Below, piece by piece: positions 5,795-20,197 of a stretch of 64,000 nt of DNA; within the stretch, counting starts at the first letter, position 1; each line of letters starts with the position of its first letter. The position numbers and the translations under genes were made by a program. A model generated the notes under the pieces. It made no database searches. It saw only the letters and a program-made list of their open reading frames with translations, and was not told the origin of the DNA. The stretch comes from Podarcis liolepis (taxonomy: Eukaryota). The stretch lies in the NCBI GenBank assembly GCA_965112155.1, contig OZ218099.1; one strand, 5' to 3'.

Positions 5795-5879
5795 ATGCAT
5801 AGAAACTGCCTGCATATCGATCACCTATGGAGACAGTACCTCCTCCTGCTGCTTGTCGTCTGGGGGTGCTCTGGGACAG
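5795..5879 (+). CDS. TGFBR3L: TGFBR3L coding exon 1, signal peptide (MHRNCLHIDHLWRQYLLLLLVVWGCSGT); exon begins at 5748
   Basis: cacc-ATG context, hydrophobic LLLLLVVW core, ACAG|GTAAAA phase-1 donor, ttcctag acceptor at 5747. Confidence 0.75.
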
Positions 5880-8800
5880 GTAAAATCTAACAGAGTGGCT
5901 ATTGTAAACATTTAAATGGGCTGCACAATAATTATCCACACCAAAGGTGTAAAACGTTTTGCTAAAACCAAACCAAACCAAAACAAAACAAAACAAAAAC
6001 ATTATTGTAGGGGAGCTATCCAGGATACATTGCTGTATGTATCAGGATGTGTAGATGTAAAAAAGAAATTAGCAGTCTTAAAATACATTTTTCTTTGCAA
6101 CCTTGAATGTAGATCAGGTCTTTCAACTTTGCTAAATAGACATGTGTGCGCTCATACAGAGCCATTTGGACAGAGCCATTTGGACATTGTCAGAGTATAA
6201 ATGTATTCAATGGGGTTTTATACTAGGGGTTTGAGGGACGTGGGTGGTGCTGTGGTCTAAACCACTGAGCCTCTTGAGCTTGCGGATCGCAAGATTGGCA
6301 GTTCAAATTCACACAATGGGGTGAGCTCCCATTGCTCTGTTCCGGCTCCTGTCAACCTAGCAGTTCGAAAGCATGCCAGTGCAAGTAGATAAATAGGTAC
6401 TGGTGCGGCGGGAAGGTAAACGGCGTTTCCATGTGCTCTGGTTTCTGTCACAGTGTTCCATTGTGCCAGAAACAGTTTAGTCATGCTGGTCACATGACAC
6501 AGAAAAGCTGTCTGCGGACAAACGCCAGCTCCCTCAGCCTGAAAGCAGAGATGAGCGCTGCACCCCAAAGTCAAATTCAACTGGATTTAACCATTCATGG
6601 GTCCTTTACCTTTACCTTACTAGGGGTTTCCCAATTCTGCATGATGCTTCTGATGCCTTTTGTCCTGCTTCTCTTTATTGGATGTACCTTCAGTGAGCAG
6701 CTTGGATTTACAGAGTATCCTTCATTCTGTACCTGCTTATTTTCCACAGGATGCATTTTCAGTTCCTTGATAACCAAGTACACACAGCTAAGGGCACTTT
6801 TAACCTGCAGCTCGGCACTCAGTATTTGTTTTTGACATTGATTACCATAGGGCAGGTAGATGCTGCCTGTGGGTTGTTTATAGCACGGAGGCTCTTAAGC
6901 TATCTGCTCAACTCATAGCCAGCTGACCATGGTTGCTTCCTATAAAGAGAAGAGTCCAGGCTTCCAAAGTTGACCAGGAGTCATAGTTTCTGTTCTGAAT
7001 GGTGAGGGGAAGGCACTCTGCCCTTGCTGTAAGGTACTTCTGCTATTTCTTCACATTCCCAAATTGGGGGGGAAACACCCATGTTGAACACTCCTGCAGC
7101 TGTACTTTGGTACCTGGTACAGCTCTCTGTGGGTTGCAGGTGGCGCTGTGGGTTAAACCACAGAGCCTAGGACTTGCGGATCAGAAGGTCGGCAGTATGA
7201 ATCCCCACAACAGGGTGAGCTCCCGTTGCTTGGTTCCTGCTCCTGCCAACCTAGCAGTTCGAAAGCATGTCAAAGTGCAAGTAGATAAATAGGTACTGCT
7301 CTGGCGGGAAGCTAAACGGCGTTTCTATGTGCTGCTCTGGTTCGCCAGAAGCGGCTTAGTCATGCTGGCCACATGACCCGGAAGCTGTATGCCAGCTCCC
7401 TTGGCCAATAAAGCGAGATGAGCGCTGCAACCCCAGAGTCGGTCATGACTGGACCTAATGGTCAGGGGTCCCTTTACCTTTACAGCTCTCTGTTCCTTTC
7501 TCATGGTGCCAGTGCATATTCTTTCACATGGAATGTTAAGGCAGGTTGAGTTGGTAGAATCCTCATGTGCTAAATGGAATTGTACCATTTCAGGCTGCAG
7601 ATGGTGTGTGTGTTTTTAAACCCCTCCCCCCTAAAGCTGTCTGTGTGTAAAATTCTAGTACATTGAGGAGAAAGAATTAGCTGCCTGGGGCAACTTAATA
7701 ACTCTGCCCAGAAGCATAGGCAGAAACGAGAGAGCCCAGGCCAGGCAGCTCCTGAGGTCGCCCTGAGAATATTTGGTAGCTTTTGTTCTTTCCAGTATTT
7801 TAAATTGAAAATTGCCTTGGTAGAAAGGCAACAAACCAGCCCAGCCTGCTCCCTACTGTGTTAGCTTTCCTATTACAAGGAACTTTTTACATTGTAGTCT
7901 CAGAATAGTATATAGTCTGGTCTGCCACCACATTCTCACCCAGTCTTATTGTTGTGTATGTAATGTGTAGCTCCTGTGCAGGGCTAGCAGCTTCCCTGTA
8001 ATTATTTAATTCATAAAATGAATGGTCAGTGGTTAGAGCACCTGCTTTGCATGACGTAGGTCCCAGCTTCATTTCCCAGCATCTTCAGGTAGGACTGAGG
8101 TTGTCCCTAGAGAGCTGCAGCCAGTCAGTGCAAAAGACAATACTCTCATCTTCATAATGAAAACAGACTTTAAATAATAATTCTCTTTAATAGGGTTGAG
8201 TGCCAAACATGACCACTGAAAAACAAGAGGAGTGCCATCAACATGCCCAGGAGAAACGGGGGGGGGGGTGGAACTAAAAGGGAGGACCCCCCCCCAAAAA
8301 AAACACTTTCCCACCCAGCAAAGGCTCTACATGCTGAGTATCCTTTGGAAAAGGAATTTAAAGGGAAGGGGGAGACTGAGCCCCTTACAGTTTATAGTAT
8401 CTTCGTGGAAGGAAAGGATAGCTGACTGAAAAAGAAACACTTTTTTTCCCTTGTACAACTTGTACAATCTAAAAATAAGCCAGTAAGTCATTGTTAGGAG
8501 CAATTCACAGTGACCCTCCCCCCTCAGTGTGGGGACCATGAAATGCGCACCAATCCATTTCTGTCCCATCATACTAGTTCCCCCAGAGTTTCCTTGTTGT
8601 TTTATTCCCCCCCCCCCCATCGTCCTCAGTCATTGGCCAGATATTCCATATTTTTTGTTTCTCAGACACAGAATGAATTATGCAAAAAAAAAAGAAAAAA
8701 GAAAAAAAAGAAAAAAAGTTAAGCTGGTGTATCATTTTGAGCTCAGGCACCTGAGCACTTTGTGTTTGGGGAGAAGGGGATGCCAAACGTACACAGTTTT

Positions 8801-9321
8801 GGAAACTACTTTTCTGAAGCCCCGTTTCTTCCAGCATTGCTCTTCTCCTTCCCCTGCAGCCTCCTGGCACCATCTCGCTTGCCTCCCCATGTCTGCCTCT
8901 ACCCCACACCCCGTCCTCGGCTTCTGGGAATCACTGCGAAAAGGCAACGGATGCACCAGCCGGGGCCGCTCTACCCTGGGGCAAGAAGTCCATGTCATCA
9001 GCCTGAAGAAGGGATTGCCGGCAAATGGCCAGGTATGGGAGATCCCCACCCATACCACCTTGCCATGTATGAGGCTGTATGATGGGTCTCGCTACAGCTC
9101 CATTGGATACCCAAACAAGATGGCAGTTCAGCTTGGCACTACGGTTCAAGGTGTCTCAGTCAGTCAAAAAGGCAAAACTCTATTTCAAAGACATCTGAAG
9201 GCAGCCCTGTTTAGGGAGGTTTTATAATATTTAATGCTGTATTGTTTTTAACACTTGATTGGAAGCCGCCCAGAGTGGCTGGGGAAACTCAGCCAGATGG
9301 GTGGGGTATAAATAATAATAA

Positions 9322-9380
<59 letters not shown>

Positions 9381-12300
9381 ATCACATCTTCACAGTTGTC
9401 AGGGCCTGGCAGAAGTCTCTCTTAAGTCACAGAAGGGTTAGGTTAGCCAAGTTGTGAGAAGCAAAGAGGAAGACTCTGCGCAGGGCCTGCTTAGAGCTGG
9501 GGGTGGGGACAGACCTCACCTGCTGAACATCCAAGGGGTAAATTGCTTTGATCATGCATGTCTCCTTGATCCTCTTTCAGGTAACTCTGATAACTCTGGA
9601 CCCAGATCCCCTCGACAGAGCCCCCATCTTTGTGCTGTATTCCCAGAAGCCTGTGCGTTGGGTGTTGCTGTCTCCCCCTGGAAAAAACTGGACCTTCCAG
9701 GTGAGATGGGATAGAGGGCCAAAGGGCCTGCAGAACATCATGGGGATCACTGAGCCAGGCCCTGCCGAGGGGGTCGTTGGAGCCCCTACTCTACGCAAGC
9801 ATAGAAGATGAGCGGCAGCTATGGGAAGGGTGGATGGAAAAGCTAATTTGCTACCTTCATAGCACTTTAACAAAATACTTTCTACCTCTGTTTGTCTTCA
9901 GAACCATCTTGTGTAGTAAGTTACTATTCTTCCCATTTTACAGATGGGGGAAATTGAGGCTGAGGGAGGCTTGCCTAAGGCTGTGGCTGAGGTGGAACTT
10001 GAACCCAGATCTCCCAGACTAAAGTGCAGCACTGTTCAACCTTAGTGCACTCCCCAGGGTGGGGTGTCAGAGAGTGGGGAGGTCCTCCAGGCTAGTATAT
10101 TTTACCTTTGCCTTCCTCCTATCTACAGGTCTCCCCCGGCTCTAATGTTTCAGCCCCAGGGCCAGTGGCTTCTGCGGAGACCAACTTACCAAAGACGCCC
10201 AAACGCCTGCTGAAGTGGGCACGGAGGGAGCATGGAGGGGTCACCTCTCTGGCTGAATACCGTGGAGTCAACAGAATCTACACACGCCTGGGGGCTGGCA
10301 TGGGCGATGAGGGTAGATATCGGCTCTGAGGGAAAGGGTGTCATTATGGCTGTGTGTCCTGCAATTCCCCTCATCCCTGACCACTGGCCCCCCTGGCTGG
10401 GGCTGATTGGAGTTGCAGTCCAGCAACATCTGGAGAGACACATGTTCCCCATATTCGCTACTGCAGTGTGATAAGCAGGAGGAAGGAAGGCAGCTGGTCT
10501 TTTGGGTCCTGGGCTAATGCAGTAACTTTGTGCAGGTCTGGGTCTGGTCAGTGCTTGGCAGGGAGACCATCCAGGAAGGAAAGATCTGTGCACTACAATC
10601 ATAGAGGGAAGATGGAATATATACACGGCACAGATAAATAAGACTCACCAGTATTAACTGGAGAGCAGTTGCCAAAGAGTTTGCATTGCTTGCAAACAAA
10701 AAAGAGTAAATCGCAGCAGCTCTTCTGTGACCATTCAGTCCAGATGCTTCATTCCTTTCCTTCTCCAGATAGGATTGCCCCAGCCACTTGCAGATTAAGT
10801 AGGAATTTCCTGACCCCGGTGCACTTTGCCTCCAAGTGCCAACTCCAGCCTCTGAGAGTTTGCCTGCATCCTGACCCTCCGCAAATCCTTGAAGTTCACA
10901 TCATCCTCTCCAAAGGAGTTGCACCAAGGTGCGTATCAGGCAGGTGTCGCCGGAGCTTCAGCATGCGGCTGTTGAACCGGGGTGTGTGTGTGTGTGTGTG
11001 TAGCGAAATGTTCATAATGAGATGCCATGTGTTGAACAGGGAGGTTGAAATTGTCCTTAGTGTAGATGGGGGGAAGGGGGATGGTGAGGAAGAATGAAAC
11101 CTGTGCAAGAAGCTGCGTATGATAAGTGACCCTTGTGTTAAAGATATAAACAGGAACATGGAAGCTGGTTCATCTAGCCTAGTACTGCTGACACGGACTG
11201 GCAGCAGATCTCCCATGTCTTTCTCAGCTCTGTCTGGAGATGATGGGGATCGTATCTCTGACCTTCTGCATGCAGAGCAGTTGCCCTGCCACTTAGCAAT
11301 GACACTTCCCCCGAAAATCAAGGCCAGACGGACACTGAGACCCTGAGCCAAAAACGAGTAGTGACAGTGGCTGGTATTAGGCCTTGAATATTGGGCAGGG
11401 GTCTCTTGAGTTGGGGGACGGGTGGCGTGGGGCTTCTCTGTCTTCCATCATGTGCTTAATCCTGTTGTGGTGGGTGGACAGCCTGCTCTCTTCTAGGCCC
11501 ACCCTGGCTCATTTGACTGTGGAACTTCATGCTGTCCGAAGGCCCCCCCACTGGGGACTGATCTTGATACTGAAGAGTGAGGGAGCTGCTGAGTGGATGG
11601 TTCACACCCACCGCCTCACTGGCCGGCTGCATGTCCTGGTAGGGGCAGGGCATAGATCTGTAACGCTCTCAGCTAATGCGCTTCTCTCTCTCTCCCTCCC
11701 CAAGTTGGTGGCAGTGGCACACATCTGGAAGGGAGCAGGGCACACATGTGCTCAAATCCAGATACAGTGGTACCTCAGGTTACAGGCGCTTCAGGTTACA
11801 GACTCCGCTAACCCAGAAATAGTACCTCAGGTTAAGAACTTTGCTTCAGGATGAGGACAAAAACCATGCGGTGGTGGCGTGGCGGCAGTGGGAGGCCCCA
11901 TTAACTAAAATGGTACCTCAGGTTAAGAACAGTTTCAGGTTAAGAACGGACCTCCAGAACGAATTAAGTTCTTAACCTGAGGTACCACTGTAGATGCATT
12001 ATGCAGAATTGCAACCTTTCCTAGAGGAAGCAGTTTGGTAATTTTAGATGCTGGACTTAATACTATTATAAGGGTTATATTATGGAGGGTTCCTTCTGCT
12101 AAGTCCTGCCTTCACAGGCCCACTAGCGAGCTTTGCCAACCCTCTTCCATAAGCTTCCCCTGCATTCTCCCTATAACTCTAGGCTTGCCTCCTCCTCCTC
12201 CTCCAGCCTTATTATTTTTCCTGAAGTGAGCCAAGGAGTCTTACTTCCTGGCTCCAACTCTCCACCCCACTAGGCTACTCCCTCTTGGGAGTTTGTCTCC

Positions 12301-15300
12301 ATGCTGCCATTTGATTCCCCTGGACCGTCTCTTGTTTATGGTGTGCCTGCTGCTGCTGCTGCTCTCCATGTCTGGGCCTTGTATATGTAACTCAGGCTGG
12401 GATTCCTTTCTAGGCTTCGCACAAAGTCACAGTCAGCAGCACAGAAATGGATCTGCCTCTGACTGTGACCCAGCGGATGTCCCCTCGGCTGACGACCCTC
12501 GACCCTTTGCAGTTTGCAATGGAGCAGAATCTGCCTGCCTTTACGTCCTACGTTGAGGCTGAGCGGGTGAACAGGTTTCTCCTTTTTGTTGGGATGAATG
12601 GTAGGTTTGGAGAGATTCAATGGACATGAATGGGAAAAGTGCCCACCAGAGAGCTTAGAGGCAAACCACTAGTGACCGCTGCTGCAGATTCCTGGCATTT
12701 ATATTCCAGTTCCTTCTGCACCATTTTACCCTAGGCTATACAACCTCCAGTTTTATTTTAGGAATGCACCAAATCAAAACATTTTCAGCATGAAAATTAT
12801 GCTTCCAAGGGGACTGAAATGGTACATACACACCAGCCAACAGCATATATTTGTTAACAGATATTTTGCTGCTTCACTGCCATTTTCCCAAACCCTTTGG
12901 AGAGCTTATTTCCTAGTCGTTATGTGATCCCAGCCAATCAGGATTCACGTAGGGATGATAAATGGTGTCAAATAGGCAATCGGCTGTGGCTACAATGGTA
13001 AAATCAAGAAGGGCAAATGAAGCCACATTGCCTTTGTTCTGAATGCTGAACCCATGGAAGAGAACAGGAAGGCATGCCATATTATGTCAGAATGTGCAGA
13101 CCTTTTACTTGGGTAACAGAAGGAATAGATATGGGGTTGCCAACGTTCTTGGGCCCATGGGCAAGTCTGCAACAGAGAAATTGTTGTGAGTACCCTGCCC
13201 TCTCCTGCAACCTATTCTATGGGCTCCAATAGAATGCTTCTTCTGAGCCTAATTTCAGTGCTGGGAGGGGAGGGTACCCTGCAGACTGTAAGAGAAGGCC
13301 TCTGTGAGCTGGGCACATGTGTTCCTTTGGGGCCACACTGGTGATGCTTGGAATAGATCATATTCTGATTAACAGCAGCAGCGTATAAGGCATATGATTG
13401 CATCACACCCACACACCTGTATTTCCTTTGTAGGGGCCACACCTCCTCTAGAAGAGCCAACACTCTTTTGGCCCATATTTTTGCATCCTCCCAGTTTCAC
13501 AGCCTCTCAACAGCACTTTGCAGAAGCCAACACAGCTGGCTGGGAGGTGACAAGGCAAGACTTTGCGGGAGAGGATGGTTCCGTTACCTACCCACCGTCT
13601 ACAGCCAAAACAGAGGGGACAGAATCTATCTTGTGTCTTGGGGACCAGAAGCCTATTCTTGAAAACCAGGACACTCAGAGCGTGAGTAGCCAAGGATGAC
13701 ATCTCCAGATGGACAGAGGGAATCTATTTCCTACAGTGCCATTTCATGTGGATGTGGATGGGCGGGTATTCTCTTGTCATTGTACATCAATACCGCTCCA
13801 CAGACCTGTTTTTCTCCTGCAGGTCTCCTGTATTTCACCTTCTCCAACCCAGATATCTCCCTCAGAAGCTGCAACGGCCTTTCAGGATCCCCACCTTCAC
13901 CTTGGCAATGCCCTCCTTAACCTAGAGCTCTACAACACAGAGGCTTTTGCCAAGCAACTTGGACCTTTTGTCGTCTCAGCCAACAGCCTCGTCTTTGTGG
14001 AGGTAAAGCGGACGAGGAATATGCAAGAGCTGGCATTGGATGCAGCAGTTACACACCAGAATCTTGTCCCTAAGTGATTCCTCCTCTGTCCAGAGATCTG
14101 GTGGTTTGCAGCACTCCCTGTCTCTCTCAGAGCCTCAAACAGGGCAGTTGACCTGCTTGTTGCTTTATGGGGGGTGATAAACTTACACTGCAGCTCTCAA
14201 AGGGATGAAGTAAGAGGGGTGATTTGCCACCACGTTTTAGCAGCTTAGAATGGCAACATGCATCCCAGGGAAGCAAAACATGCATCTGTAAGCAAAAGAG
14301 CAAGGAATAGACTAGGCAGATTTCATACTGAGGCCCAATTCAAGGCCCAACTTTATGGTTGGTTGGCAATGAAAAAATAGGTATAAAAAGAGAATTCCTG
14401 GATGCCAAGAACCAGGTCTGGGGCAAGTATTCTTTGGTGAGAGAACCCCAGCAGAAATTTAAAATAACAAACACCTAGCAAAGTAAAGCGTGGAAATATA
14501 GGTTGTCATTCTTAGAATATAACTTTCTAAGTTCCTTCCAAAATTCCCCTCTTCTCTTAGCATAGAAAATACCATGTGTGGGGCAAGTTAAAAATGGTTT
14601 ACTTACAAACTCTCCAAAGATCAGATTCATGTGCTTTTCAATGCAGCATTCAGAAAACGTCAGCAGCAAAACTTGCACTTGTGTTTGCAGACTAGATGGT
14701 GTTTCCTTTTTCCTCCAGGCTTCCTTGGCAACCTATGACTCGTCTCTCAGCTTCACCATCCAGAAGTGCTTCATCTCTAGCTCCTCAGATGCTTCAGAGA
14801 CCTCGGTGTATCTGCTGGTCCAGCATGGCTGTCCCGTGGCTGCCGCCCAAGTCAGGCTGTGGAAACCCAAGCTGCCAGGCCAGGCCCAGGCGTTGCCTCT
14901 GGGGTACCAGGAACGCCAGCGACTGAGCTTTGTGTTGAAACCCCGGTCCAATGCCTCCATCCACTTCTTGCACTGCCGTCTGAGCCTCTGCAGCAGGGGG
15001 TCTCAGGACTCCGCCAGACCCAAGGGCGCAATCCCCAAGGTCTCTGGCTCCCTGGGCTAGGGAACCCTGTCTTCTAGCAGCTGTCTGAGGGCCTGATAGC
15101 GCTACTGCTTCAGAATAGGCTCTCCTGATTGGGGATGCTTAGGGAGGAAACTGATATGCCACAGCAAGCTCTCCACATGGCCCAGAGGTAGCCAAAATGG
15201 TGCCCTCTGCTCGATGATGACACTGGCTTCATAATTCCCAGCACCTCAGCTAGCATGGCCATTGGCCAGGGGTGATGAAAATTGTAGTCAATTGGTATCT

Positions 15301-18300
15301 AGGGGGGCACCATGTTGGTTACCCCTTAGCTTATTATTACTGCCTCCTCTGAATGGCAGTATCCCTCAAGTGTTTCAAGCAGAGGTCTTTCCTTTGATAT
15401 GTTTGGCTGGGGGCCCCTCTGTGTGCTTTGCCCCTCAGCTATGACTGGCCCCTTCCAGAAATCCTTGGTCCATCTCTGCTTTGAGGGTGGAAGGCCTCTT
15501 TATTCCAAAAGATGGAATCAAGAGGAAAGCGAAACCCCTTGGAGGGGTGGAAACCCTCTGGAATGGGCCTGTGCAAAAGAGCCTCCCTGTTAGCTGTAGA
15601 AATGAGCTGGCTGGGCTTATGGAGAAGCAGGTGGGATGTAACTAGGCCAAGGCCTACCTCCCACTGTTGGGATGAGGCACTCTTCTGAGGCAGGTTTTTG
15701 TTTCAGTGTCGGTCTGAGAACGAGGCCTGCAGCGGAGAAGAGGAGGCGGTCCCAAGCCGCTTCCAGCGCACCATCACAAAGCCTATGCTAGTGACTGTGG
15801 AGACTCCGCTCCGAGCTGCCTTTCCTGGCCCGAAACCAGGTACTTTCCTGTGGGTTCTAGATAGCAGCTAGAAGAGAGTTGTTGGCTTGAAGGCCTTGCA
15901 GTTCAGCACCCTGGCTCCATGCTGGAGAGAACTGCCCTGCAGAGTGAGTGAGGAACTGAAAGAAACGGATGGGGGAGTCCTGCTTGCTAGGGAGATGGAA
16001 GCGTCTTGGTGTGCATCTCTCCAGAGCAGAGGTGGTGGACCTGTAGCCCTCTAGATATTCTTGGACTCCAGCTCCCATCACCTCAAGCCAGCATGGCCAA
16101 TGGCAAGGGATGATGGGGCTTGTAGTTCACCAGCATCTCCTACCCAGGAGATTGATGCCTTGGCTCTCACCATGCTACAAGCTCAGACTTTGCCAATGAC
16201 ATCTTACATGTTCATCCTGAGTGAAGCAAAGTAGCAATGATGGGCAGAGTTATGCACTCATTCCTTTTCTCCCCCTTGCCACCCGGAGGCTATTTTCTTC
16301 AGACACTCCCTCAGATTATCTGTTCCTTCCTTGACTTTGGTGTCTTTTTCTGCAGCTAATGTCCCAGACAAACAGCAAGGAAAAGCACCAAAGGATGCAG
16401 CCCACAAGCGGAAGACTCAGGTAGTCCGAAGTAAGTAAACATCCCCATGATCTCTTGCTGGCCTTGTTTCCCGGGGATTTGGGGACTGAAATCAGTTTTA
16501 GACTGGGATTCTACTCCTGGCTCTGGGGGGGGGGGGAGTGGAGTTGAGGATTCCTGCTGCTGTGGGTTGGAGCAAGAACTCTGATCCTCAGACTTTTTCA
16601 TTCTGTATTACCCCATTTCTGGCCCTGGCCCATCTCCCCTTCCTGGACAGAGAGTGAGAATGAATTTTCGTGCTCTTTCTCCACACATCCTCCCCATTTC
16701 CCGCTTCTCTATAGCTGCAGCTACGCCAGGCCAGACGGTCCCTGCAGTAATTGGGATAGCTATTGCAGCCTTCCTCATCGGCATCTGCCTCACTATTGGG
16801 CTCTGGCTCATTTACACCTATACAGGTGGGTATGAGGAGGCTCCCCTCAGTGCTGTAGGTACCACCTATTTTACTTGAATGATTGATTTTTGGCAAAGCC
16901 TGGGGGAGCACACCTTAGCATTTCTGTAAAGGTAGACTGGGCCTCATGTCCGAGATGGGAAAACTCCAAATTATAGATCATGACACCTTTCATCAACCTA
17001 TTGCCTTCCAGCTGTTTTGGATTTTAGCTCTCATCACTAGCCAGCCATGCTTGCTGGGCCTGGACCAGGAGTTGTTCTCCCAAGCATCTGGAGGGCACCA
17101 GGTTGGGGCTGGTTGGCTTCTGCCAACTGTCTGCCTCCATCTCTTCCGTCAGAGACAGAATATGCATTATTCAGTCACATGTACACAGGTTGAGTTACAG
17201 TAGGGCATGGATCTTGGGGTGGAAGCTGGCAGCCAAATGATCCCCATTGCAGTTGGTTTCTAGGAAGGATCATGACCCTTAGGCGATCGAAGATGCAGCA
17301 GCTGAAATACATATTGGAATCAATGTTACAAAAAAGTCTGGAGGGGATTATGTGTCTGGGAAATTTGCATCATTATTCATATTGGTCTGCCTTTGCACAG
17401 TTGTACTTGTCCACCCATCCACCATGGAAAAAAGAAATAGAAACAGAACAAATAGGATGATAAAAAGGCCAGACAGTCAAAGGAGGAAAGTAAAGGTCAG
17501 AGGGGAGGGAGAGGGATTTATGTGCACATCCATGATATTGATCCCCGTCTGCTTTTTATTTCTGGTTATTTTTTATTATTAGACAGTGCACATGCATTTT
17601 CACACCTTTCTCTGAAATGAGGCGGTCTGAACAAAGCTTTAATTACTAAATTTTAATGCCAGCCTTGAACTCGTAGGTGAGTCGGCTTCCGGGAGGAGGA
17701 GCCAGCCTGCAGCTGAGACAGGTAAGGTGACACATTGGCTTTTGAGAAATCCTTCATTTGAGCAGAGGCTTTGATTCTGCACTCATTTCCATCTCTGGCT
17801 GTGAATGGAATCAGTGGTGCACGCTTATATTAACTTTTAATTATTTTTCAATGTTTAATTATTTCAAACTGGTTCTTTAATTGATAATTTCAACATTATA
17901 AGCACCTTAGATGTTTGACTACAACTAAGCAGTATACAAAATTTGTTAAATAATAATGAATGCATATTGCATGGGTGTCCAGTTCAGCAACCACAGGCAC
18001 ATATGCACCTTGAGACCTTCCTGGTGCCTGCAAGTCCCCTTCCCTCTGCTGAATAAGGCTTCCAAAAAGTCACCTATTGTAGCTAATATAAGGCAGGGAG
18101 AGTTATCTTCCAGCTATACCTGGAGATGCTGGTGAACTGAACCTGGGACCTTCTGCATACACCTGGACTCGTTTGAAGCATCCATAATGCAAATGCACTT
18201 GGAGTGGGCAGAGCCAGGAATTCAACTAAGCTGTCCTTACTACAGCAGGTTGCTGTATGCAAGAGAGCCAGTTCATTGCCTCCAGGATTAGCCAGTTTTA

Positions 18301-20197
18301 AATATACCCAAGCTAGGGCAGTTTTGCTTCATCTCAATACTTAAAAGTGGAACATTATAAATATGCTAAGGCTTGGAGAAGCTAACATATGCAAATAGGA
18401 AGAGGGTGCATTTGCTTACCTCTGGAAGGGGGTTAGTGTGGTGGTGAGATGGATGGTTGCAGTGCAGTTGGGGGCGGGTGGGGGGCACTGCTGCATTTTC
18501 TTTCTTCCTCCTGCTAGACCCTGTAGGACCATCTGCTCCAAAGCGTGAAGACACTTTGTCAGCTCCAGCTGCAGCTGGCCCTGCACGTCGCACGTGGTGC
18601 TCTACCCTAAGAAGCCTCTACCGAAGAAGGTAACTAGATTTCAAAAAGTTCATGGGAGGAATGAATTTGGAGAATTGGAAGGGGATTATTTATTGACTTG
18701 GATCCTTTGTGCCCCCTGCATTTCCAGAGTTTGCCTCTGCAAATATGCAGGCTTATACAAGTAGCGTGGTGATGTTTTTGAGTGATTTTTGTTGATAATA
18801 ATAATACAATAATTTATTATTTATGCCCTGCCCAACGGCTGGGTTTTCCCAGCCACTCTGGGCTGCTTCCATCAAAATATTAAAATACAATAGTCCTTCA
18901 GATATTAAAAGCTTCCCTAAACAGGGCTGCCTTCAGATGTCTCCTAAAAGTCTGGTAGTTGTTTTTTCCTTTGACATCTGGTGGGACAGTATTCCACAGG
19001 GTGGGAGCCATTACCGAGAAGGCCCTTTACCTGGTTCCCTGTAACTTTGCTTCTTGCAGTGAGGGAACCGCCAGAAGGCCCTCGGCGCTGGAGCTCAGTG
19101 TCTGGGCAGAATGACGGGGGTGGAGCCACTGGACCAAGGCTGCTTAGGGCTTTAAAGGTCAGCACCAACACTTTGAATTGTGCTCGGAAATGTACTGGGA
19201 GCCAATGTAGGTTTTTCAAGACTAGTGGTATGTGGTCTCAGCAGCTGCTCCCAGTCATCAGTCTAGCTGCCGCATTCTGGATTAGTTGTAGTTTCTGGGT
19301 CACCTTCAAAGATAGTCCCATGTAGAGCGCATTGCAGTAGTCCAAGCGGGAGATAACTAGAGCATGCACCACTCTGGTGAGACAGTCTGCAGGTAGAAAG
19401 GGTCTCAGCCTGCATACCAGATGGAGCTGGTAAACAGCTACCCTGGACACAGAATTGACCTGCGCCTCCATGGACAGCTGTGAGTCCAAAATGACTCCCA
19501 GGCTGCACACCTGGTCCTTCAGGGGCACAGTTACCCCCATTCAGGACCAGGGAGTCCTCCATGCCTGCCTGCCCCCTGTCCCCCCAAAACAGTACTTCTG
19601 TCTTGTCAGGATTCAACCCCAATCTGTTAGCCATCATCCAATCTCCAACCGCCTCCAGACATTCACACAGGACCTTCACTGCCTTCACTGGCTCTGATTT
19701 GAAAGAGAGATAGAGCTTTCAGCACATTTATTTTAACTTTTAATGGACTTTTGTTGCATATTGTACTTTGTTGTCTCTGCAACTCACTTTGGGACTTGAA
19801 GCAATACACCAGTTGAATAGATGGAATTGTTCATGGGATGCATTCCATGTCTAACTGAGAGATGGAAGTCAAAACTAGTAGGGATTTTGTATTTGAAACT
19901 GGTCCTTTTGTTGTTCGTCCCATATTAGCATTCACAAATGAGATACTCCAGACCGAATGGAAGGAAATTTTTTAGGGTCAGTTATAAAAACATGCCTCTG
20001 CAGCTTTAAACACTGCAACTGTTAGCTGATGAGTCTGTGATGGTAGCACAATAACAAATATGTAAAATGTTTGCTGGACGAGAGAGGAATGGGGAGCTTG
20101 GGTCCATAATAGGTTGTCAAGAGAGGCAGGCAAAGAAGGGCCAGTGGGGAAGTCTAGCCTGTCATCCGCACTGATTTATCTATCTTATAGGTTCTAG
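5795..20197 (+). CDS. TGFBR3L: TGF-beta receptor type III-like protein (betaglycan/endoglin family), whole spliced CDS span, ~755-760 aa: signal peptide, orphan domain, linker/vestigial ZP-N, ZP-C, TM, short tail
   Basis: About 16 phase-compatible exons whose peptides align colinearly with TGFBR3 motifs (GCTSRG..EVHVI, LLKWARREHGGVTS, NFL, LILILK, TSY..RVNRF, LELYNT, six-Cys ZP-C, TKP EHP, TM IGIAIAAFLIG). It neighbours EVI5L, as TGFBR3L does at human 19p13.2. The symbol is inferred from synteny plus divergence from TGFBR3. Confidence 0.82.
6235..6617 (+). mobile_element. Sauria SINE, full length
   Basis: GGGACG head with tRNA-like A/B boxes, (ACCTTT)n tail, TSD tactaggggttt. Confidence 0.9.
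7131..7480 (+). mobile_element. Sauria SINE, full length, second subfamily
   Basis: Same head and core, cctttacctt tail, TSD tacagctctctgt. Confidence 0.9.
8860..9032 (+). CDS. TGFBR3L: TGFBR3L coding exon 2, start of orphan domain
   Basis: ctgcag acceptor and CAG|GTATGG donor; CLPMSASTPHPVLGFWESLRKGNGCTSRG..QEVHVISL resembles TGFBR3 CELSPVSASHPVQALMES..GCASRG..QEVHVLNL. Confidence 0.9.
9180..9378 (+). mobile_element. L2-type LINE 3' fragment with expanded (TTA)n tail (9323-9378)
   Basis: Matches the 3'UTR of the 18795 element (gccgcccagagtggctggggaa); similar remnants at about 32835-32890 and 34855-35005. Confidence 0.8.
9581..9700 (+). CDS. TGFBR3L: TGFBR3L coding exon 3, orphan domain
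   Basis: tttcag acceptor, CAG|GTGAGA donor, 120 nt, phase 0-0; VTL..IFVLYSQKPVRW resembles VTL..VFLLNSPHPLVW. Confidence 0.88.
9860..10030 (-). mobile_element. MIR/CORE-SINE remnant
   Basis: cccattttacagatgggggaaattgaggctgag..acttgaacccagatctcc core motif. Confidence 0.6.
10129..10312 (+). CDS. TGFBR3L: TGFBR3L coding exon 4, orphan domain; ends at 10312 (GT donor) or 10297 (GC donor)
   Basis: VSPGS..LLKWARREHGGVTSLAEYRGVNRIYTRLG resembles VSEGS..LLNWARKEYGAVTSFTELKIARNIYIKVG; both donors are phase 1. Confidence 0.88.
10769..10928 (+). CDS. TGFBR3L: TGFBR3L coding exon 5, orphan domain
   Basis: ttctccag acceptor, AG|GTGCGT donor; DRIAPATCRLSRNFL..C..EVHII resembles DQVFPPKCNIGKNFL..C..EVHII. 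Confidence 0.9.
11497..11638 (+). CDS. TGFBR3L: TGFBR3L coding exon 6, orphan domain
   Basis: Phase 2-0; GLILILKSEGAAEWMV resembles NLILILKCKKSVNWVI. Confidence 0.88.
11765..11990 (+). mobile_element. Tc1/mariner-type MITE, family A
   Basis: TIRs CAGTGGTACCTC..GAGGTACCACTG with TA TSD; homologous to 45293-45518. Confidence 0.88.
12414..12600 (+). CDS. TGFBR3L: TGFBR3L coding exon 7, end of orphan domain
   Basis: Phase 0-1; FTSYVEAERVNRFLL resembles ITSYTMAPVANRFHL. Confidence 0.88.
13434..13681 (+). CDS. TGFBR3L: TGFBR3L coding exon 8, linker plus first strand remnant of ZP-N
   Basis: ttgtag acceptor, AGC|GTGAGT donor, open frame in phase 1-0 that bridges exons 7 and 9; ends ESILCLGDQKPILENQDTQS. 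Confidence 0.75.
13823..14002 (+). CDS. TGFBR3L: TGFBR3L coding exon 9, start of ZP-C
   Basis: VSC..GNALLNLELYNTEAF..ANSLVFVE resembles FNC..GNITFNMELYNTDLF..ENGHVYVE; GAG|GTAAAG donor. Confidence 0.9.
14719..15039 (+). CDS. TGFBR3L: TGFBR3L coding exon 10, ZP-C core
   Basis: FTIQKCFIS..HGCP..RLSFVLKP..FLHCRLSLCS..IPK resembles FAIQTCFIS..ICP..RFSFVFKP..FLQCELTLCT..LPK; 321 nt. Confidence 0.92.
15707..15839 (+). CDS. TGFBR3L: TGFBR3L coding exon 11, ZP-C end and EHP
   Basis: CRSENEAC..RTITKPMLV resembles CVPPDEAC..KTFTKPLAV; phase 0-1. Confidence 0.88.
16356..16430 (+). CDS. TGFBR3L: TGFBR3L coding exon 12, basic juxtamembrane stalk
   Basis: Strong acceptor tctttttctgcag, GAA|GTAAGT donor, 75 nt in phase 1-1 with no stop. 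Confidence 0.7.
16715..16825 (+). CDS. TGFBR3L: TGFBR3L coding exon 13, transmembrane helix
   Basis: VIGIAIAAFLIGICLTIGLWLIYTYTG resembles the TGFBR3/ENG [29 protein letters not shown]; alternative acceptor at 16721. Confidence 0.92.
17677..17721 (+). CDS. TGFBR3L: TGFBR3L coding exon 14, cytoplasmic (GESASGRRSQPAAET)
   Basis: cgtag acceptor, CAG|GTAAGG donor, phase 1-1; resembles TGFBR3 GETAGRQQVP. Confidence 0.7.
18518..18629 (+). CDS. TGFBR3L: TGFBR3L coding exon 15, cytoplasmic tail; if the donor is not used, TAA at 18631-18633 ends the protein
   Basis: Strong pyrimidine tract plus ctag, open in phase 1, AAG|GTAACT donor. Confidence 0.55.
18795..19717 (-). mobile_element. 5'-truncated L2-type LINE (RT C-terminus plus 3'UTR, frameshifted)
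   Basis: LNPDKTEVL, LGVILDSQL, SRLDYCNAL..LQLIQNAAARL and LHWLP..FKVLVLTFKAL across three frames; (TTA)-rich tail. Confidence 0.9.
20191..20197 (+). CDS. TGFBR3L: Probable TGFBR3L terminal exon start (..RF*), followed by 3'UTR
   Basis: tatcttatag acceptor fits phase 2; TAG at 20195-20197; candidate ATTAAA poly(A) signal at 20869-20874. Confidence 0.4.

Follow-up and report, generated by a model that had tools for sequence, protein, structure and literature searches.

Lizard TGFBR3L probably lost its ZP-N exons in an ancient, exon-exact deletion and kept two cysteines as relics

Mammalian TGFBR3L is a short pituitary co-receptor for inhibin B with a single ZP domain (Brule et al. 2021, PMC8673766). 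Its expression is gonadotrope-restricted, and it has been described as a ZP-C-only protein. In betaglycan (TGFBR3), the loop that binds TGF-β, PNSSSAFQ, lies in orphan domain 1 (PMC11865472), and a bond between cysteines C1 and C4 is canonical for ZP-N (PMC5464963). Standalone ZP-C proteins of nematodes document repeated and ancient loss of ZP-N, with ZP-C under selection (Weadick 2020, PMC7456536). Already known, then, are repeated ZP-N loss in nematodes, the ZP-N-less form of mammalian TGFBR3L, and the protein models in public databases. Among the literature matches listed, including passages of PMC7795056, PMC13187141 and PMC12018112, we found no description of the domain architecture of TGFBR3L outside mammals, and a term search of the supplement to PMC8673766 gave one alignment match, which concerns mouse and human.

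The window, a stretch of 64,000 nucleotides from Podarcis liolepis, contains a gene of this family with the following features, all on the + strand.

5795..5879, +: first coding exon of TGFBR3L, with signal peptide; its translation matches the N-terminus of Podarcis/Zootoca TGFBR3-like proteins
8860-9032, 9581-9700, 10129-10312, 10769-10928, 11497-11638, 12414-12600, +: complete orphan domain, six exons in an open spliced frame
13434..13681, +: linker exon of 248 nt, phase 1 to 0, ending in a remnant of the first ZP-N strand; RNA joints 12599>13433 and 13680>13823
13634..13636, +: codon for the Cys homologous to ZP-N C1, Cys418 of the window protein
13682..13822, +: 141-bp GT..AG intron; turtles have two phase-0 exons here (84 aa, with C2 and C3)
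13823..14002, +: exon of 180 nt, phase 0-0, with the C4 remnant, the interdomain linker and the first ZP-C strands
13829..13831, +: codon for the Cys homologous to ZP-N C4, Cys436 of the window protein
13851..13852, +: in-frame AG, 30 nt inside exon 13823-14002, preceded by a pyrimidine-rich run (22/30 C/T)
14719-15039, 15707-15839, +: ZP-C exons (Pfam PF00100; RNA joints)
16356-16430, +: juxtamembrane exon (RNA joints; translation)
16715-16825, +: transmembrane exon (RNA joints; translation)

Spliced at these coordinates, the gene (5795-16825) yields an open frame of 706 residues comprising signal peptide, orphan domain, linker, ZP-C and a transmembrane helix, and the product is 96% identical to Podarcis 'TGFBR3-like' proteins. 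The orphan domain of the Podarcis ortholog matches betaglycan orphan structures in sequence (E 1e-28 to 1e-30) and in fold, the best PDB matches of the lizard ZP-C are betaglycan ZP-C, and a single transmembrane helix follows ZP-C, as expected of a TGFBR3L. Several other observations concern the same transcription unit. Another in-frame acceptor lies 15 nt before 11497 and adds five residues (11482-11496) that fall exactly at the position of betaglycan's TGF-β-binding loop, and squamate models vary in having them. At 15040-15403, contigs in three runs continue past the donor of the ZP-C exon into the intron, where an in-frame stop soon follows; this would give a secreted form without the transmembrane helix, although the contigs may also represent unspliced RNA. 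Most squamates carry two extra cysteines in ZP-C (window 13823-15039; 21/24 and 19/24), both missing in lacertids; they may form an additional bond whose two partners were lost together there. The lacertid orphan domain has an odd extra cysteine of its own. Beyond the last exon, on the minus strand at about 18800-19720, lies a fragment that, judging by its ORF, is probably from a LINE-like reverse transcriptase.

The window gene is TGFBR3L, a paralog of TGFBR3. In a tree built from 36 C-terminal segments, the window protein falls inside a tetrapod clade of 16 rows that also holds the amphibian and turtle proteins and the TGFBR3L of marsupials and placentals (support 97/96); TGFBR3 forms a clade apart (95/98), endoglin is a separate clade, and proteins of fish, lungfish and coelacanth join the TGFBR3L side weakly (80/65). 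The genome's true TGFBR3, which falls in the TGFBR3 clade, is on contig C6 (G000:C6:72.83-72.86 Mb), another contig than the window gene. Assignment of the window gene to TGFBR3 or endoglin was rejected on the tree and on this second locus. Exons of a MAP2K-type kinase lie ~18 kb upstream of the window TGFBR3L, and downstream, on the minus strand at about 28200-58200, is an EVI5L-type TBC-domain gene. A paralog of the latter sits 0.5 Mb from TGFBR3 on C6 and marks a duplicated block. From sequence motifs and this synteny, we take the two lizard neighbours to be MAP2K7 and EVI5L. Turtle TGFBR3L models are merged with MAP2K7, and four of the turtle proteins (P0028, P0034, P0036, P0038) carry MAP2K7 as their RefSeq name, which makes them invisible to name searches. 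The gene order reported for sheep is EVI5L, PRR36, LRRC8E, MAP2K7, TGFBR3L (PMC13238802). Because the window gene is TGFBR3L, the ancestral comparison is turtle TGFBR3L; TGFBR3, the yardstick of the original prediction, has equivalent exon and cysteine positions but is not the same gene.

The original prediction described an exon at 13434-13681, a 141-bp intron and an exon at 13823-14002, and both coordinates and transcript contigs confirm this arrangement. Contigs from three of four runs (three studies, related lizard) join 13680/13681 directly to 13823, and one contig of 1,880 nt extends from the final orphan-domain exon as far as the transmembrane exon; in the fourth run (raw reads, X23) the junction was without coverage. 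The runs are presumed to be RNA, and the GT..AG joints in their contigs show splicing. Between the same two exons, the lizard's own TGFBR3 has two further exons, both phase 0-0: the first, of 150 nt, encodes C2 and C3, and the second, of 141 nt, carries the acidic Ser-Gly sites. The flanking exons of this gene are separated by 4,732 nt. Turtle TGFBR3L has at this junction an 84-residue cassette encoded by two phase-0 exons, and the exon borders around the cassette are identical to those in the lizard. The turtle and TGFBR3 exons thus support the prediction that two phase-0 exons, bearing C2 and C3, were lost without a change of frame. No remnant of the turtle cassette was detected in the three forward frames of the 141-nt intron (shuffle p 0.45-0.62), which contains an in-frame TGA if retained. 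The spacing between the orphan domain and ZP-C is altered, as anticipated: C1 and C4 are 102 residues apart in 12/12 turtle long forms versus 18 in the window protein. In Pfam searches the lizard proteins match ZP-C (PF00100) and not ZP-N (PF23344); turtle long forms match both, with Terrapene as an example for ZP-N. Of the features of ZP-N, the lizard protein has only the C1 and C4 positions, with no predicted strands and without the four-cysteine, seven-strand fold.

The cassette is missing in all 27 squamate proteins, one per species, in 14/14 members of the Podarcis cluster, and in the TGFBR3L model of the tuatara, which is partial and has a C1-C4 spacing of 13. This distribution indicates that the loss is ancient and no assembly gap: we infer that it preceded the squamate split, and it probably preceded the lepidosaur split as well. 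That the exons are missing through an artefact of assembly or annotation has a negligible probability, since contigs of three studies splice straight across the junction and the cassette is absent from every squamate species and Podarcis member sampled. The direct splicing in three runs and the 27 squamate species also answer the concern, raised with the original prediction, that the assembly had dropped the exons, and an assembly gap was ruled out as a candidate on this basis.

We consider it likely that the window gene encodes a lepidosaur TGFBR3L co-receptor whose ZP-N cassette exons were deleted in the squamate (probably also tuatara) ancestor, leaving a predicted disordered linker with C1 and C4 as relics. 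Isoform models suggest how this may have happened. Trachemys X7 and Mauremys X8 of TGFBR3L skip both cassette exons, Mauremys X5 and X6 skip one, and Hyla TGFBR3 X2 skips the same two exons; all of these skip forms are annotation models. A form lacking the phase 0-0 exons could have arisen through such skipping, singly or together, and then have been tolerated and fixed by genomic deletion. Tolerance would be expected because the exons are phase 0-0, because they are skipped in turtle models, and because betaglycan ZP-N binds no ligand. The frog TGFBR3 models P0114 (Hyla) and P0234 (Staurois), which skip these same two exons, would yield betaglycan proteins devoid of ZP-N as well as of the GAG sites.

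One further consequence attributed to the deletion, removal of the GAG attachment sites, was not borne out as far as the motif shows. Acidic neighbours favour GAG attachment at Ser-Gly, and we scored a Ser-Gly as acidic when at least 3 acidic residues lay within 7 residues of it. Among the 29 ZP-N-bearing TGFBR3L proteins given, 26 were parsed, and betaglycan's acidic motif was present in none (0/26). Three of five TGFBR3 controls could be parsed and two had the motif, with 5-7 acidic residues near the Ser-Gly; the exon of the lizard's own TGFBR3 has it too. The absence of the motif from 26 proteins suggests that the betaglycan sites were probably gone from TGFBR3L long before the exons were deleted. 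A non-acidic Ser-Gly in the cassette of 11/12 turtles makes GAG attachment possible there. The lizard protein has one acidic Ser-Gly in its ZP-C (residue 609), which is unconserved (present in 1/9 aligned squamates). The view of it as a non-proteoglycan receptor is likely to be correct.

The origin of the two leftover cysteines is clear from their positions. In lizard TGFBR3L, the lizard's own TGFBR3 and turtle TGFBR3L alike, C1 lies 15 residues before the end of its exon and C4 is the third residue of the following exon, which upholds their identification as the C1 and C4 of ZP-N. Their fates differ across squamates: C1 is kept in 25/27 proteins and C4 in 13/27, so that the expected conservation holds for C1 and fails for C4, which is missing in snakes, anguimorphs and pleurodont iguanians. 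Four pleurodont iguanians have a substitution at C4. In ten other proteins (7 snakes, 2 anguimorphs and 1 unverified gecko model), C4 is gone together with a 10-residue segment, and the shortened exon starts where an acceptor at the AG of 13851-13852 would place it. On the evidence of these protein models, a shift of the acceptor to this AG likely dropped C4 in snakes and anguimorphs. Among further snake isoforms and cluster members, 16/19 were parsed and C4 was missing in 16/16. Use of the inner AG was not seen in the transcript contigs, which drop rare forms. That C4 appears only through a wrong choice of acceptor was ruled out for the lizard group, where contigs use 13823. C1 persists in 12 of the 14 squamate proteins without C4; it is lost only in both Anolis, a clade already without C4.

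The original prediction read the pair as a disulfide-closed mini-loop, and a selected version of this idea would make C1-C4 a functional staple, maintained because it fixes how far the orphan domain lies from ZP-C or because it prevents a free thiol. C1-C4 is the canonical ZP-N bond (PMC5464963), and the two cysteines occur together in geckos, skinks/cordylids, lacertoids and agamids, four major clades, as well as in the tuatara model, with no case of C4 without C1 (0/27). A cysteine pair just before ZP-C is also found in other ZP-N-less models (4 frog-type, 2/6 marsupial and one unnamed protein). Against this, C1 stands alone in 12/27 species, and neither cysteine is better conserved than its neighbours: C4 is present in 13/17 proteins where the segment exists, compared with 9-17 of 17 for neighbouring residues, and C1 in 25/27, compared with 24-27 of 27 for adjacent Leu, Gln, Pro and Glu. 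The segment is predicted to be disordered. In the AlphaFold model of the Podarcis ortholog, the orphan domain and ZP-C are confident, and pLDDT is below 50 over residues 360-464, which include both cysteines and for which no distances are given. For the turtle protein, modelled as a control from the same 59 sequences, AlphaFold folds ZP-N, with values mostly of 73-92. Low confidence of this kind is compatible with a disulfide. Across 24 squamates, identity is 53% for the remnant and 49% for the linker, and the orphan domain (74%) is as conserved as ZP-C (73%). We therefore judge a required staple unlikely, and support for the mini-loop itself is weak, with C4 missing in 14/27 proteins. A new role for C1, such as an intermolecular bond that dimerizes the receptor as in endoglin, with C4 incidental, is very improbable. 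It would account for the retention of C1, inside a squamate-specific conserved block, in C4-less proteins, and endoglin does dimerize through unpaired cysteines (PMC5464963). In 13 species, however, C4 would compete from 18 residues away, both Anolis lack C1, and cysteine parity across the ectodomains shows no pattern pointing to a new partner. C1 and C4 are thus probably relics and not a needed clasp. Where both remain, a loose 18-residue loop probably closes during secretion but would be dispensable, because C4 has been lost several times. That both residues have survived together in tuatara and in four clades of squamates is consistent with weak selection on the pair.

Betaglycan's TGF-β loop PNSSSAFQ is replaced in 5/5 squamate and 2/2 turtle TGFBR3L proteins shown, and the lizard orphan domain may have a partner other than TGF-β. 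By analogy with mammalian TGFBR3L (PMC8673766), the lizard ZP-C would serve an inhibin-type ligand and hold it next to activin type II receptors, and the tethered orphan domain would add a second, non-TGF-β contact.

Database protein models, of which those of lungfish and coelacanth are partial at the N-terminus, place the lizard form in a wider pattern. Orphan domain, ZP-N and ZP-C are all present in turtles and, if their proteins are orthologous, in lungfish, coelacanth and ray-finned fishes. Salamanders and caecilians have ZP-N and ZP-C without the orphan domain, frogs and mammals have ZP-C only, and lepidosaurs have the orphan domain and ZP-C without ZP-N. TGFBR3L is thus full-length in turtles and likely so in fishes, and the models suggest that lineages lost different modules. 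For crocodilians and birds, word-limited searches returned no named match, which does not imply absence. The salamander and caecilian models (P0258, P0259, P0267, P0268, P0131), with signal peptide, ZP-N and ZP-C, are a mirror image of the lizard form. ZP-C-only models of frogs and marsupials (P0161, P0172, P0149, P0260-P0264, P0223) keep a cysteine at the C4 position, among them 6/6 marsupial models; P0223 is short, unnamed and TGFBR3L-like. In frogs a new cysteine follows the one at the C4 position, suggesting re-pairing. A bolder synthesis, which we put forward tentatively and regard as somewhat doubtful, is that TGFBR3L started out as a complete second betaglycan and was dismantled module by module in different tetrapod lineages; that the lepidosaur product is a two-site co-receptor whose conserved orphan domain binds a member of the TGF-β family other than TGF-β itself and whose linker is stapled by C1-C4; and that lizards, turtles, salamanders and mammals form a natural deletion series for the origin of inhibin B selectivity.

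Taken together, the data show that a known gene underwent a real and ancient loss of ZP-N along exact exon borders; the cysteine relic is genuine but probably dispensable. The cysteine detail is minor; of more value is the picture of TGFBR3L as a second betaglycan taken apart, with an orphan domain that is conserved in squamates. The lizard form, in which ZP-N was deleted naturally, carries an orphan domain that is the third among vertebrates, alongside the betaglycan and endoglin ones. Such proteins are ready-made constructs for asking what ZP-N does and how selectivity for inhibin A versus B evolved, in animals for which a reduced gonadotropin system has been reported (PMC12360902).

Comparison with described relatives sets the lizard protein apart from each. 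Mammalian TGFBR3L is the same gene by tree and synteny and likewise has ZP-C and a transmembrane helix without ZP-N, but it lacks an orphan domain, whereas the lizard protein has a full one plus both ZP-N end cysteines; as its ectodomain is not the single ZP domain of the mammalian protein, we class it as a variant. Turtle TGFBR3L, 54-55% identical in orphan domain and ZP-C, has retained the 84-residue cassette, and with it a folded ZP-N; only some isoform models skip the cassette, and the lizard protein has neither. Betaglycan shares with lizard TGFBR3L the orphan domain, the ZP-C fold, the exon phases and the C1/C4 positions; it differs in having a ZP-N that bears GAG sites of the acidic Ser-Gly type, and in the TGF-β loop (PMC11865472), which is absent from the lizard and turtle proteins alike. 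Endoglin is likewise an orphan-plus-ZP co-receptor of the same family, but it belongs to a separate clade and is a Cys-linked dimer with a full ZP-N held by C1-C4 and C2-C3 bonds (PMC5464963). The nematode ZP-C proteins are small and secreted, whereas the lizard loss is internal, with exon-exact borders and with the orphan domain and ZP-C kept on either side.
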